A stretch of 64,000 nucleotides of DNA from an uncultured Anaerolineales bacterium (GCA_964532665.1 CAZHMV010000001.1:103742-167741), one strand, 5' to 3'. Counted from the stretch's first letter, positions 51,671 to 58,904 are shown. Made by a program: numbers and translations. The notes: a model not told the origin generated them from the letters alone.

Positions 51671-52231
51671 ATGAGTAGGAAATACAAGATCGGAATCGTG
51701 GGGTTGCTGGTAGTCGGCGTGCTGGTGGCGGCCATGGCCGGCACCGCGCTGGCCCAGGACGCGACTCCCACGCCGGCACCCAGGGCCTTCGGCTTTCACG
51801 GCTGGGGCCGCGGCGCCGGCTGTGGTGGCCTGTGCGGGCAGGCAGGCCTCGACGCCGCTGCCGAGGCATTGAACATGAGTGCCGATGACCTGTCCACCCA
51901 ACTGTGGGGTGGCCGGACCCTGGCCGACTTGGCGGATGAGGCCGGCGTTGACCTGCAAGCCGTTCGTGACGCGGTCGATGTTGCTTGCGAGACAGCCAAG
52001 CGGGACGCCATCGAGCAGGCCGTTCAGGATGGACGTCTGAGCCGGGAGCAGGCCGACTGGCTGCTGCAGGGCCTGGATAACGGCTACTGGGGTGGCCGCG
52101 GCTCCTTCGGCTTCGGCCGTGGGTTTGGACATGGACGTGGCTTCGGCCGAGGGTTTGGAGCTAACCCTGGCGGCATGAGGTGGGGCGCTCCGCCAGCGCA
52201 GAGCGCGCCGGCTGCGGGCAACTCCGCGTAG
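51671..52231 (+). CDS. Secreted small protein with two helical repeats and a Gly/Arg/Phe-rich C-terminal tail (GRGFGHGRGFGRGFG)
   Basis: Signal peptide MSRKYKIGIVGLLVVGVLVAAMAGTALA. RBS GAAGGAGG. Sits directly upstream of the two-component system. Confidence 0.5.
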   Translation: MSRKYKIGIVGLLVVGVLVAAMAGTALAQDATPTPAPRAFGFHGWGRGAGCGGLCGQAGLDAAAEALNMSADDLSTQLWGGRTLADLADEAGVDLQAVRDAVDVACETAKRDAIEQAVQDGRLSREQADWLLQGLDNGYWGGRGSFGFGRGFGHGRGFGRGFGANPGGMRWGAPPAQSAPAAGNSA

Positions 52232-52253
52232 TTACGCACCACTGGTGCTGGAA

Positions 52254-52283
52254 GGGGGGAGAGGCCGGCTACGGCCTCTCCCC
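52254..52283 (+). terminator. 12-bp-stem GC-rich hairpin downstream of the secreted-protein gene (terminator-like, no U-tract)
   Basis: GGGGAGAGGCCG-gcta-CGGCCTCTCCCC. Confidence 0.4.
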
Positions 52284-52305
52284 CTCGAAGGAGGAGACCT
52301 CTGTT

Positions 52306-52392
52306 CTTATCCGTGTTTCTTTCCATCCGTGAGAGATGTTGATCCCTTGTCGGTTCGAGACGCAGCTTCGCCGGGCAGTTACATTTGTCGCC
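52306..52392 (+). other. Conserved roughly 90-nt non-coding element (copy A) upstream of the response-regulator gene; paralogous to 62221-62312
   Basis: ttatccgtgtttctttccatccgtgagaga...cttgtcggttcgagac...gcagcttcgccgggcagtt is about 75% identical to copy B. Confidence 0.6.
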
Positions 52393-52462
52393 GTGGCAGG
52401 ATGGGGCTATATTTGACATCAGGAATGTTGCTGTTGTCGGTTGAAGAGGGAAAGAGGCTGCG

Positions 52463-53149
52463 ATGCCGAAAACAATTCTGGTGGTGGATGACGAAAAACA
52501 GTTACGCACATTGGTGAAGGCCTACCTGACGCAGGAGGGATTCCGAGTCGTGACCGCCGCTGATGGGCGGGAAGCTCTGTTTGTGGCGCGGCATGAGAAG
52601 CCAGACCTCATCATCCTCGACCTGATGATGCCAGAAATGGACGGGTATGAATTCATGCGCGTCTACAGCAAGGAACGGGAGACCCCCGTGATCATGCTGA
52701 CTGCCAAAGTTGAAGAAAACGACAGAGTTCTGGGGTTGGAACTGGGGGCAGATGACTACGTCACAAAGCCGTTCAGCATGCGCGAACTGGCGGCGCGAGT
52801 GCGGGCCGTGCTACGTCGCGCCGGCAGTCCCTTGCCCGATTCGGAAATCCTGCGTGCCGCTGACATTACACTTGACCGGGCCAATCACGTTGTCACCGTG
52901 AGCGACAGGCACGTCGATCTCACGCCCACCGAGTTTGACCTGCTGGCCATCCTGATGGCGGCGCCAGGGCGCGCCTTCTCTCGCTTTGACCTGCTCGACC
53001 GGTTGCAGGGCACCGCCTTTGACGGATACGAACGCACCATCGACGTCCACATCCGAAATCTGCGCTCCAAGCTTGAACCGGACCCACGCCATCCACGCTA
53101 CGTTGAGACGGTTTTTGGGGTCGGGTATCGGTTTACGGCTGGTGGTTAG
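52463..53149 (+). CDS. OmpR-family response regulator
   Basis: Receiver domain (DDEKQLR...DLMMPEMDG) plus a winged-helix trans_reg_C domain. Confidence 0.9.
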   Translation: MPKTILVVDDEKQLRTLVKAYLTQEGFRVVTAADGREALFVARHEKPDLIILDLMMPEMDGYEFMRVYSKERETPVIMLTAKVEENDRVLGLELGADDYVTKPFSMRELAARVRAVLRRAGSPLPDSEILRAADITLDRANHVVTVSDRHVDLTPTEFDLLAILMAAPGRAFSRFDLLDRLQGTAFDGYERTIDVHIRNLRSKLEPDPRHPRYVETVFGVGYRFTAGG

Positions 53150-53164
53150 AGGGGTTGTGGGGGC

Positions 53165-56198: not shown

Positions 56199-56255
56199 GT
56201 CACGTTGGTTCTTCGCTGCGTAACTCCCCGGACAGGAACTGATGTCAACCAGCTA

Positions 56256-56636
56256 TTACGCTGCTGCCGGCATCTGCCGAAGGGTCCGTGGCGCCTTGCT
56301 CGGGTTCAAACGAATGGTGGGAGGCGAGCCCGGTTGCAATTCCAGGAACTCTTTTACCGGAGCAGTTTTAAGAACCTGGACAATCGTCGCCCGTTCCTCG
56401 GCTGTGAGATTGGACAGGGCCAGCAGTGTCAATGGCCCGTCGTCGCCGGCGGACTGGGCGGCCAGCAAGCGTGAATAGTCAATGAAGATGATCTCAATGG
56501 GCTGGGCCGTCTCAGGGTCGAAGTAGAGCACGATGCTGGGATTCAATTCCAGGCCGGCGCTTCTTGAGTTTCGGGTATCTTGAAAGAAAACGGTGAAAAT
56601 GTCACCTTCTGGATCATATCGAGTATGCATCAGCAT
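56256..56636 (-). CDS. DUF2283-family small protein, on the opposite strand inside the efflux gene cluster
   Basis: [18 protein letters not shown]...[21 protein letters not shown] matches the DUF2283 YDxExD...GxxxGIEI pattern. An alternative upstream start is at 56690. Confidence 0.5.
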
Positions 56637-56792
56637 GCTCCCAACGTTCCCCGGTAAGGTAGACTTCGCGCCCCCGCCGATCGCGGGCAAAGATGGGCCA
56701 CTTGTGGTTCGCCGTAGTCATCGATTTGGACCCCGGCTAGTATTCTACTGCGAGTTCCCATTGAATGCAAATGGAGGTTCTCTGGAGTGCAA

Positions 56793-57519
56793 GATGATTA
56801 GTCTGACACACGTAACCAAAGTTTACTGCATGGGCACTGTTGAAGTCCATGCCTTGCGCGGCGTCTCGCTGTACATCGACGAGGGTGAGATGGTCGCCAT
56901 CATGGGGCCGTCGGGGTCGGGCAAGTCCACGCTGATGAACATCATCGGCTGTCTGGACACGCCGACGGCCGGTAGCTACTACCTGGCCGGCCAGGACGTG
57001 AGCCAGATGGATGACGACCAACTGGCCGAGATCCGCAACAAGCGCATCGGCTTCGTCTTTCAGACATTCAACCTGCTGCCCCGAACTCCCGCCCTGGACA
57101 ACGTGGAGTTGCCACTCATCTACGGCAACGGCAAGGACCGCCGGCAACGGGCCATCGCAGCTCTGGAGAGTGTGGGATTGGGGGAACGGGTGGATCACCG
57201 GCCCAATGAGCTATCCGGCGGCCAGCAGCAACGGGTGGCCATCGCCCGCGCTCTGGTGACGAACCCGTCCATCATCCTGGCCGACGAGCCGACGGGAAAC
57301 CTGGACAGCCAGGCCGGACAGGAAGTGATGGCCATCTTCCAGCAACTGAACCGAGAGCGAGGCATCACGGTGGTGTTGGTCACCCACGAGCCGGCCATCG
57401 CCGCCCACGCCCAACGGGTCATCTCCATTCGGGACGGCCTGATCGTCGGCGATGAGCCGGTGGCCGAACCGAGGGATGCTGAAGCAGGGGTTTCTCTGTA
57501 CAACAGCGGTAACGTATGA
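56793..57519 (+). CDS. ABC transporter ATP-binding protein, MacB/LolD-like
   Basis: Walker [10 protein letters not shown], signature [15 protein letters not shown], Walker [13 protein letters not shown]. Confidence 0.9.
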
Positions 57520-57542
57520 TCACCTGGTCGGTTGGCGTTCGC

Positions 57543-57610
57543 TGAGTTCCTCTGAGTTTCGCCGGGGGGTTCGGGGGAACTCGAGGGAACTCAGGGGAAC
57601 TCGGGGGGGT
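57543..57610. repeat. GGGAACTC-type tandem repeat hairpin between the ABC ATPase and permease genes
   Basis: gagttcctctgagtttcgcc ggggggttcgggggaactcgagggaactcaggggaactcggggggg. Confidence 0.7.
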
Positions 57611-57659
57611 ACCGCGTGAGGGATAAGTATACAGTTGCCAACAGTGAGGTGAGCGATCC

Positions 57660-58904
57660 ATGAACATTGTTGAGAGTATCCGAATTGCCTTGCGCAGCCT
57701 GGCGGCAAACCGACTGCGCTCATTTCTGACCATGTTGGGGGTGATCATCGGCGTGGCGGCGGTGATTGCCCTGCTGGGCATTGGGCGGGGGGCCGAGGCA
57801 GCCATTACCGCCCAGATTCAAGGTCTGGGGACCAACCTGCTCTTCGTGCAACCGGGAAGCACCAGCCAGGGGGGTGTACGCACGGCCGCCGGCTCGGCCG
57901 CCACTCTCACCCTGGAAGACGCCTATGCTCTGGCGGATCCGATCAATGCCCCGTCGGTGGCTCTGGTTGCCCCCGAAGTCTCCCGCTTCGTCCAGGTGGT
58001 GGCCCAGGGCCAGAACACCAACGTGCGCGTGATCGGCACCACCGAGGAATACCAGTGGGTGCGTAACACACCGCTGGAGATCGGGGAGTTTATCGCCCAG
58101 CACCACGTGCAGACCTGGTCGGCCGTGGCCGTGCTGGGGAGCCAGGTGGCGGCCGACCTGTTCGGCGAGATGGACCCAATCGGTCAGACGGTTTACATCA
58201 ACCGCGTACCCGTCCGGGTTATCGGTGTCCTGGCACCCAAGGGCGGTACCGGTTTCTTCAACCCCGACGAGAGCGTCCTCGTACCCATCACCACGCTCCA
58301 GCGCCATCTCGTCGGCGGACGGTTCTTCCGTGGGGGGCACACGATATCGGCCATCAACGTGCAGGTTGCCGACGAGTCGCTGATGGACCAGGCGGTGCAG
58401 GAGATCGCTGAGGTGCTGCGCCAGCGCCATCGCGTGACCTACGAGGACGATTTCAGGATCACAAGTCAAAAGGATTTCCTGTCGGCTATCGCCCAGGTAA
58501 CGGGCATCATGACCCTGTTTCTGGCTGGCATCGCTGCCATCTCCCTGGTCGTCGGCGGCATCGGCATCATGAACATCATGCTCGTATCCGTGACGGAGCG
58601 GACGCGGGAGATCGGCATTCGGAAGGCGGTGGGGGCGCGCCGGCGGGATATCCTGGCCCAGTTCCTGGTGGAGGCGGTGGTGCTCAGCGTGGCCGGCGGG
58701 GCGCTGGGGATCCTGGTTGGGGCAGGGATTGGCCGGCTGATCTCCGGCGTGAACCTGGGCGGCACGGTCCTGACCCCGCTGGTGGAACCGGACGCGGTAC
58801 TGCTGGCGGTGCTCTTCTCGGCTGCGGTGGGCCTGTTCTTTGGGGTCTACCCGGCCTGGCGTGCGGCCCAACTGCATCCTATTGAAGCTTTGCGATACGA
58901 GTGA
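57660..58904 (+). CDS. ABC transporter permease, MacB/FtsX family (MacB_PCD + FtsX domains)
   Basis: N-terminal TM, a large periplasmic domain, and three C-terminal TM helices with an FtsX motif. Confidence 0.85.
   Translation: MNIVESIRIALRSLAANRLRSFLTMLGVIIGVAAVIALLGIGRGAEAAITAQIQGLGTNLLFVQPGSTSQGGVRTAAGSAATLTLEDAYALADPINAPSVALVAPEVSRFVQVVAQGQNTNVRVIGTTEEYQWVRNTPLEIGEFIAQHHVQTWSAVAVLGSQVAADLFGEMDPIGQTVYINRVPVRVIGVLAPKGGTGFFNPDESVLVPITTLQRHLVGGRFFRGGHTISAINVQVADESLMDQAVQEIAEVLRQRHRVTYEDDFRITSQKDFLSAIAQVTGIMTLFLAGIAAISLVVGGIGIMNIMLVSVTERTREIGIRKAVGARRRDILAQFLVEAVVLSVAGGALGILVGAGIGRLISGVNLGGTVLTPLVEPDAVLLAVLFSAAVGLFFGVYPAWRAAQLHPIEALRYE

Follow-up and report, generated by a model that had tools for sequence, protein, structure and literature searches.

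A predicted secreted protein, a two-component system and a MacB-type pump in an Anaerolineales bacterium: a probable extracytoplasmic stress module with a toxin-antitoxin remnant

The gene block described here lies between positions 51671 and 58904 of a 64,000-nucleotide stretch of DNA from an uncultured Anaerolineales bacterium (GCA_964532665.1, CAZHMV010000001.1:103742-167741), which is called the window and whose numbering is used throughout. The block encodes a small secreted-type protein, referred to as g1, followed on the same strand by a response regulator, a sensor histidine kinase, a membrane-fusion adaptor and the separate ATPase and permease of an ATP-binding cassette (ABC) transporter, and it carries on the opposite strand a gene of the DUF2283 family (Table 1). 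The locus is probably a two-component-controlled extracytoplasmic stress module that also holds the remnant of an unrelated inserted cassette. A first-pass annotation, made from the window alone, had read the block as an envelope-stress module; its seven genes were found again at their positions in the open reading frame (ORF) listing and Pfam scans used for the gene map. Its overall reading holds as a working analogy to the Cpx, Bae and CssRS systems, based on conserved gene neighbourhoods and a shared operator, while the family membership it had offered for g1 fails.

Gene neighbourhoods were compared in 80 loci, one per Chloroflexota species, that encode g1 relatives. The proteins of the window, together with the extracytoplasmic function (ECF) sigma factor and the HtrA protease of two other g1 loci, were used as queries against the six-frame ORFs of these loci. 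A regulator/kinase orthologue (E≤1e-60) is encoded within 3-4 kb of g1 and on its strand in 29 of the 80 loci, and the regulator starts less than 400 nt downstream of g1 in 19. MacB-type pumps are found within 8 kb on the g1 strand in 23 loci, with a pump gene directly 3' of g1 in 10, and HtrA orthologues (Trypsin_2 plus PDZ) within 3 kb on the same strand in 21, mostly 0-213 nt downstream; an ECF sigma factor is present on the g1 strand in four. At least one of these four partners stands beside g1 in 59 loci, and about half of the other 21 are contigs with less than 2.2 kb downstream of g1. The secreted protein, the two-component system and the pump occur together in at least 12 loci, and the gene order is variable, since g1-regulator-kinase, g1-HtrA-(YceI)-regulator-kinase, g1-MacA-ABC-permease-regulator-kinase and g1-ABC-MacA-permease-regulator-kinase arrangements were all seen. 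The locus of one relative, L011, keeps the block g1-regulator-kinase-adaptor-cassette-ATPase next to a different left flank, which has TetR and SDR genes where the window has LCP and MnmE genes. LCP and MnmE were also considered as members of the module and were placed outside it, because their synteny is confined to the closest relatives and other genes take their place in L011. The secreted protein, the two-component system and the pump form a recurrent functional neighbourhood, and their adjacency is not due to chance.

The g1 protein has a hydrophobic, signal-like N-terminus ending in ALA-QD, a linker rich in Gly, Arg and aromatic residues, a core of 80 residues (56-136) and a C-terminal tail of GRGFG repeats, GRGSFGFGRGFGHGRGFGRGFG, which is the Gly/Arg/Phe tail pointed out in the first-pass annotation. 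That annotation had also described a signal peptide and two helical repeats; the signal-like N-terminus stands, and the two simple repeats give way to a core that AlphaFold predicts as five helices (predicted local distance difference test above 93) between Gly-rich flanks predicted to be disordered (below 50). A large protein collection holds 625 homologues, and all those with a taxon name are from Chloroflexota. Among species representatives, 333 stretches were confirmed to carry the family, often with several copies per genome. In its members a hydrophobic N-terminus that closes with ALA-Q(D/E) is followed by a TPTPAP linker, then by a brief stretch of Gly, Arg, Trp and Phe, and finally by the core and the tail. 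The core is well conserved, with motifs such as LWGGxTLADLA and ADWLLxGLDxGY and 55-86% identity across 32 aligned homologues (alignment A2), and the Gly/Arg/Phe tail is variable.

Neither Pfam nor NCBIfam assigns a family to g1. The CpxP/Spy/LTXXQ and DUF2680 families, which had been suggested for it, are not borne out by hidden Markov model (HMM) searches, which returned no match to PF07813 or PF13801 at E≤10 in Pfam, none in NCBIfam, and none to DUF2680 (PF10925, YckD-like) even at E≤10. Homology to CpxP/Spy was also rejected on an hhalign probability of 0.3% against E. coli CpxP and on the lack of a PDB fold match, and a PDB sequence-profile search gave only noise. Paralogues of about 280 residues score 16.1-28.1 bits against DUF2680, straddling its gathering cut-off of 25 bits, over about 30 residues around a G-x-LT-x-EQA helix; a literature search on DUF2680/YckD function gave no useful result. 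A PADLOC scan of g1 and of the antitoxin and toxin described below found nothing meaningful. By its sequence, g1 is a member of an uncharacterised, Chloroflexota-wide family of predicted secreted proteins. Some g1 paralogues (about 280 residues) have a duplicated core, and tandem or duplicated g1-regulator-kinase units are present in several genomes of other species (loci L021, L081, L089 and L093), which suggests a lineage-specific expansion of the sensor/g1 pair.

Upstream of g1, three TTCT repeats with 11-nt phasing (51569, 51580 and 51592) end beside a -10-like TATACT box (51598-51603). The pattern TTCT-N7-TTCT-N8-TTCT followed by TATACT occurs once in the window. The 65 nt upstream of g1 are unchanged among relatives, including L011, whose flank beyond is unrelated and whose homology with the window starts exactly at this promoter block. 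In many distant species g1 is preceded, about 65 nt before its start codon, by CCTTAACAAC TTCTTCATCAC CTCTTYAYNTT CTTTTGG TACAAT, and the conserved promoter consists of 11-nt-phased CTTCAY direct repeats adjoining a TAYAAT -10 box. A position weight matrix (PWM) trained on 15 g1 upstream sites was scanned over both strands of the 80 loci (2.1 Mb) and gave 43 matches of at least 12 bits, all 43 on the g1 strand. The matches outside the training set are upstream of regulators (L055, L046, L076 and L093), of pump ATPases (L063, L060, L080 and L048) and of further g1 genes. With an operator-only PWM made from other species, strong matches in the window are limited to 51548 and 51559 (19.2 and 18.8), the next scoring 5.1 and the background having a mean of -71 and a standard deviation of 15. 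One predicted promoter/operator architecture is thus common to g1, regulator and pump ATPase genes in different species. Its layout resembles the sites of PhoB/OmpR-family activators, such as the pho box, in that three CTTCAY repeats spaced by one helical turn adjoin a good -10 box and a -35 box is lacking. Directly 5' of the promoter block is a dispersed element of 85 nt (51454-51538), with copies at 11916-12000, 20379-20462 (inverted) and 34082-34167, those at 20379 and 34084 being 98% complementary over 84 nt; it has no Rfam match, and since relatives lack it at that position it does not belong to the conserved promoter.

Just 3' of the g1 stop codon there is a stable hairpin (-41.7 kcal/mol), which is kept in relatives with compensatory changes, and the rest of the g1-regulator spacer (156-618 nt) is remodelled by repeat insertions. 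This hairpin is likely a terminator or an attenuator; a terminator consensus scan of the window did not rise above the shuffled expectation. The spacer also has a weak promoter-like site (52385-52413), which comes from a scan not above chance and serves as a lead only. We read g1 as the primary regulated target in the window, with the unit of regulator, kinase and adaptor presumably fed by read-through of the hairpin and/or by this weak site. A TTCT-rich 33-nt element in the same spacer, TTCTTATCCGTGTTTCTTTCCATCCGTGAGAGA (52304-52336), has a 91% identical copy at 62218-62250, upstream of a minus-strand fusion gene, and apparently belongs to a longer repeat (shared CNCPAKL / MERNTDK frames). 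It was rejected as a regulator site, being a dispersed repeat that is present in L011 and absent from L001, L009 and L010.

The response regulator has a receiver (PF00072) and a winged-helix domain (PF00486), which places it in the OmpR/PhoB family. It scores 199.3 bits against the BaeR equivalog model, whose cut-off is 380, and stays below all NCBIfam equivalog cut-offs. The nearest NCBIfam model to the kinase is BaeS/SmeS (3.2e-75), with 253.8 bits against a cut-off of 500. The two proteins are therefore similar to BaeSR and, by the equivalog test, not its orthologues. The topology of the kinase, read by eye from its sequence, has two transmembrane segments flanking an extracytoplasmic domain of about 130 residues, followed by HAMP, HisKA and HATPase_c. 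The in-frame repeat insertion that had been noticed in this gene is a real heptamer palindrome that separates the N and G1 boxes of the HATPase_c domain. It is built of CAGTNNN units and then CTGATNN units and lengthens the protein by about 30-37 residues (SVISQQLAVNSDQSSVISNQTAADGKLITDNC). In L011 the kinase, which is 93% identical, retains the insertion with a single residue change, and that of L009 is shorter at the site, where its sequence is masked.

The adaptor gene starts 13 nt after the kinase stop codon. Its product scores 184.7 bits against TIGR01730 (RND_mfp subfamily; cut-off 94.9), and identical or near-identical proteins are annotated with YknX-type domains. It is unusually long (519 residues), with a coiled coil (54990-55490) that has multiple P(T/S)xAELAAAxA-type repeats (DNA direct repeats D10 and D13) and a Gly-rich C-terminal tail, GPGGGFFGGGGRR. 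The ATPase aligns to the MacB nucleotide-binding domain at 3.7e-85 in NCBIfam, and the permease is nearest to MacB. Together with the adaptor they have the domains of a MacB-type (type VII) transporter (PF12704, PF02687, PF00005 and PF16576); the MacB equivalog cut-off of 966 is not reached because the nucleotide-binding domain and the permease are separate genes.

The 595-bp gap between the adaptor and ATPase genes contains the minus-strand ORF 56256-56636, which the first-pass annotation had called a DUF2283 gene without a partner. The ORF is there, its own score against DUF2283 (PF10049) is only 16.3 bits (E 0.011; gathering cut-off 23), and the assignment is recovered at the level of the family. 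A full phmmer search found 53 cluster representatives, and 39 of 42 aligned relatives match DUF2283 (best E 2.2e-8); a word-based search found only the protein itself and an 88%-identical orthologue in L011. The ratio of non-synonymous to synonymous substitution rates (dN/dS) against this orthologue is 0.29. Because of the matches of its relatives and of this ratio, the gene is considered real and, as judged from sequence, a divergent antitoxin-like member of the DUF2283 family; the family and its constant pairing with a toxin family also argue against an artefact. Its ancestral start is the ATG at 56630, as in L011, and the protein has an N-terminal DUF2283 domain and a C-terminal extension of about 70 residues.

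In L011 an intact gene of 105 residues (P0123) lies 20 nt upstream of the antitoxin gene. Alignment with this locus shows a clean 247-bp deletion in the window, which explains the apparent lack of a partner: no intact partner gene is present, and its first 30 codons remain on the minus strand (56632-56721), and a brief tail out of frame follows them. The deletion joins 56632 to 56631, and the original ribosome-binding region of the antitoxin gene was also removed. The same short spacing is found in contigs from three independent samples, so the deletion is not an assembly error. The 105-residue family has 75 members and occurs in unrelated contexts, always followed at 4-10 nt by a DUF2283-like gene of 119-123 codons. 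The partner that had been expected is DUF4258. The 105-residue protein and ten relatives gave no Pfam match at E≤10, DUF4258 (PF14076) included, and the fold class nonetheless agrees, since the modelled toxin matches the structures of RelE, BrnT, YoeB, CdiA-CT and colicin D, which are those of the BECR (Barnase-EndoU-colicin E5/D-RelE) fold of the RelE/ParE superfamily.

The BECR toxin families include DUF4258 (PMC11980606). The genetic signature predicts a type II toxin-antitoxin cassette, which shares with the known DUF4258/DUF2283 and RelE/ParE-superfamily pairs the toxin-first two-gene order, the short spacing, the unrelated contexts, the match of the toxin model to BECR structures and a second gene of the DUF2283 family. 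It differs from DUF4258/DUF2283 pairs in a toxin family without any Pfam match, in the C-terminal extension of the antitoxin and, in the window, in the deletion of the toxin. Distant modules (L053, L059 and L079) have adjacent adaptor and ATPase genes, so the insert is lineage-specific; as reconstructed from these sequences, the cassette was inserted between the two genes in a recent ancestor shared by the window and L011, and the window lineage later lost the toxin. In an unrelated genome (L101:3001-6321) a toxin/DUF2283-like cassette again lies beside genes of an OmpR-type regulator, a kinase and a YknX-type adaptor, which could be due to chance or to a preferred insertion context.

The way in which such a module would work can be proposed from these elements. 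The BaeS-like kinase would sense perturbation of the envelope or of secretion through its extracytoplasmic domain and phosphorylate the OmpR-type regulator, which would bind the 11-nt-phased CTTCAY/TTCT repeats that stand in for a -35 box and activate the g1 promoter as PhoB does at a pho box. Sec would export g1, a small helical protein whose Gly/Arg/aromatic tails are predicted to be disordered, and beyond the membrane it would serve as a stress protein, likely as a chaperone, adaptor or feedback partner that works with HtrA-type proteases and the pump, and so as an analogue, not a homologue, of CpxP/Spy. Regulator, kinase and adaptor would form one tightly packed unit 3' of g1, probably supplied as described above, and the pump, made up of the YknX-like adaptor and the MacB-type ATPase and permease, may remove some harmful compound or peptide from the surface of the membrane. 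The opposite-strand gene would stand outside this circuit, as the antitoxin of a mobile cassette of BECR-fold toxin and DUF2283-like protein.

Among known systems, the module would work, as a working analogy, like Bae/Cpx of E. coli and CssRS-HtrA of Bacillus. BaeSR (mdtABCD-baeSR, acrD, spy) and CpxRA-CpxP/DegP likewise have an OmpR-type regulator and a BaeS-like kinase linked to an efflux pump, a small secreted helical protein as the prime target of the regulator, which is here predicted from the operator, and an association with DegP/HtrA proteases, which is here seen in the wider g1 family; the best curated similarity of the kinase is to BaeS/SmeS. BaeSR is reported to control MacAB as well in Acinetobacter (PMC4498774). 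The window differs from both systems in having a MacB-type ABC pump instead of a resistance-nodulation-division pump, in a g1 that is not homologous to Spy or CpxP, in a regulator and kinase below the equivalog cut-offs and in its Chloroflexota host. With CssRS of Bacillus subtilis, which acts with HtrA and HtrB, the module shares an OmpR-type system tied to HtrA-family proteases and a probably monoderm-type envelope, g1 being directly followed by an HtrA orthologue in about 20 species; the window itself has no HtrA gene, and CssRS has neither a g1-like protein nor a pump.

The pump resembles YknXYZ of Bacillus and Spr0693-0695 of Streptococcus pneumoniae (PMC5985334). YknWXYZ, Spr0693-0695, HrtAB with HssRS/ChrAS, and BceAB-BceRS are the group of pumps to which it comes closest, through an adaptor that bears YknX-type domains, a stand-alone ATPase and a MacB_PCD/FtsX permease; no TolC gene is found nearby. 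Unlike YknW, a Yip1-type membrane protein, the product of the first gene is of a secreted soluble type; the permease is of the plain four-helix MacB type and not the ten-helix type of BceB, and the kinase has a sizeable extracytoplasmic domain, unlike the intramembrane sensors of the BceS type. By sequence comparison, g1 belongs to none of the small-protein families of these systems. Genetic coupling of MacB-type transporters to OmpR-type two-component systems is known (PMC5985334).

Several observations weigh against a stress module of this kind. The PWM scan found no operator upstream of the window's regulator (best -24.6) or ATPase (best -27.6), and co-regulation of the pump in the window rests on read-through, because the operator is found only upstream of g1; moreover, the antisense cassette splits the pump genes and sets ATPase and permease apart from the upstream operon, so this co-regulation is a prediction only. 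The hairpin after g1 has no U tract, a scan of the window for sigma-70-type promoters was not above chance (2 sites against 1.4 expected in shuffled sequence, both taken as leads only), and the operator motif came to notice in the window before it was tested on other species. Sequence, profile and fold searches detect no g1 homologue of known function or solved structure, so the activity given to g1 is guilt by association. Three points, namely the operator confined to g1, the inserted opposite-strand gene and the low DUF2283 score, would also suit genes that are mere neighbours, with g1, the two-component system and the pump functionally unrelated and the DUF2283-like ORF spurious. That is highly improbable: the same-strand adjacency recurs in dozens of species and in several gene orders, the operator is common to different species, the block is kept where its flanks have changed, and the ORF has a dN/dS of 0.29 and comes from a family of 53 cluster representatives that is always paired with the toxin family at 4-20 nt. 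Neighbourhood, family, dN/dS and operator results largely refute this explanation.

The other two explanations accept the association and give g1 a different part. Its main role could be that of a sensor accessory: once secreted, it would bind the extracytoplasmic domain of the kinase and exert negative feedback, without a chaperone or pump-related activity of its own, as CpxP does for CpxA, CseA for CseC, LpqB for MtrB and SaeP for SaeS. The commonest arrangement, with g1 directly upstream of regulator and kinase, and the tandem units of L021 and L081 speak for this, and a g1 promoter with a regulator-type operator is the wiring that feedback needs. Yet g1 stands with only HtrA in 11 loci and with only a pump in another 11, with no two-component system within reach, and the operator precedes g1 even where the two-component system is elsewhere (L048, L049 and L080), which fits a member of a regulon and not necessarily a dedicated partner of the sensor; we regard an accessory role alone as unlikely. 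Alternatively, g1 could be the cargo or the signal, a secreted bacteriocin-like or autoinducing protein that is sensed by the two-component system, which in response would turn on the g1 promoter, and that is exported through the wall zone by the pump, or against which the pump gives self-immunity, following the logic of NisRK/NisFEG for nisin, of AS-48EFGH and of SDP/YknWXYZ. MacB-type pumps with adaptors do handle Sec-exported peptides and proteins, among them SDP, AS-48 and the enterotoxin STII (PMC5985334). In addition, g1 heads the module with its own regulator-type operator and a Sec-type N-terminus, and in 10 loci a pump gene follows it directly. Antagonistic peptides, however, usually evolve fast and are patchy in distribution, unlike the strongly conserved core of g1 and its widespread, often multicopy family; many g1 genes stand with HtrA or a two-component system alone and no pump nearby, and no maturation or modification genes are found nearby. 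A cargo role appears quite improbable, and the stress module with its inserted remnant is retained as the preferred reading.

Table 1. Features of the gene block and its surroundings, in window coordinates.
Feature	Position	Strand	Remarks
g1	51671-52231	+	186 aa, secreted-type protein
OmpR/PhoB-family response regulator	52463-53149	+	Response_reg 1.8e-32, Trans_reg_C 1.2e-26 (Pfam)
Sensor histidine kinase	53165-54625	+	HAMP, HisKA, HATPase_c (Pfam)
HlyD/MacA-type adaptor (membrane-fusion protein, MacA/YknX type)	54639-56198	+	HlyD_D23 6.6e-24
MacB-type ABC ATPase, separate nucleotide-binding subunit	56794-57519	+	ABC_tran 2.1e-36
MacB-type permease	57660-58904	+	MacB_PCD 8.6e-49, FtsX 7.9e-23
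DUF2283-family antitoxin-like gene	56256-56630	-	124 aa; ORF as listed 56256-56636
Toxin gene remnant	56614-56721	-	alignment with L011
g1 promoter/operator (predicted)	51548-51605	+	phased direct repeats and -10-like box
GC-rich hairpin after g1	52254-52285	+	14 bp, z -4.7
Heptamer palindrome within kinase gene	about 54265-54390		z -4.3
Decamer-repeat hairpin, ATPase-permease spacer	57541-57605		z -3.9
Heptamer palindrome 3' of permease	58912-59012		-57 kcal/mol, z -7.6

Other features of the window are mostly repeats. The hairpin that had been reported between the ATPase and permease genes is real and is made of GGGAACTC decamer repeats; like the kinase palindrome, it comes from a repeat family that recurs elsewhere in the window, and decamer tandem repeats of the GGGAACTC type are present at 3613-3652 and 57573-57612. 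The palindrome 3' of the permease separates it from a convergent minus-strand gene and is a probable bidirectional terminator. Palindromes with 7-nt units are abundant in the window (15668-15787, 25317-25398, 33079-33180, 35862-35963, 39713-39755, 41167-41253 and 58906-59012); they are of several families (CAGTGAT, ACGCAAT and GCGATAG types) and mostly intergenic, and the assemblies of relatives often break near them. The convergent gene (58992-62312, minus strand) is a very large fusion ORF of an APH-type phosphotransferase, an M23 peptidase and a class-III aminotransferase, called as 1045 residues in public contigs. An Rfam scan of the whole window returned no family.

The control of envelope-stress responses has been elucidated for Proteobacteria, Firmicutes and Actinobacteria, and the envelope of Chloroflexota is still debated. 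To our knowledge such a response has not been worked out for this phylum, and a literature search found none. The wiring of the locus is familiar; its novel parts, the family of secreted proteins and the predicted operator, are both found across the sampled Chloroflexota loci. The inserted cassette is a clean natural case of toxin loss that leaves an orphan antitoxin, and it points to an unannotated family of BECR-fold toxins paired with DUF2283-type antitoxins. The module itself provides a new, highly conserved secreted family, a predicted regulator site common to g1, two-component and pump operons, and a set of partners, which are HtrA, a MacAB-like pump and an ECF sigma factor. It is possible, and we suggest it tentatively, that the g1 family comprises unrecognised extracytoplasmic stress proteins specific to Chloroflexota, which have a fold unlike that of CpxP/Spy, are controlled through a pho-box-like operator by a dedicated BaeS-like two-component system and, together with HtrA proteases and MacAB-type pumps, would make up the core envelope-stress response of the phylum.

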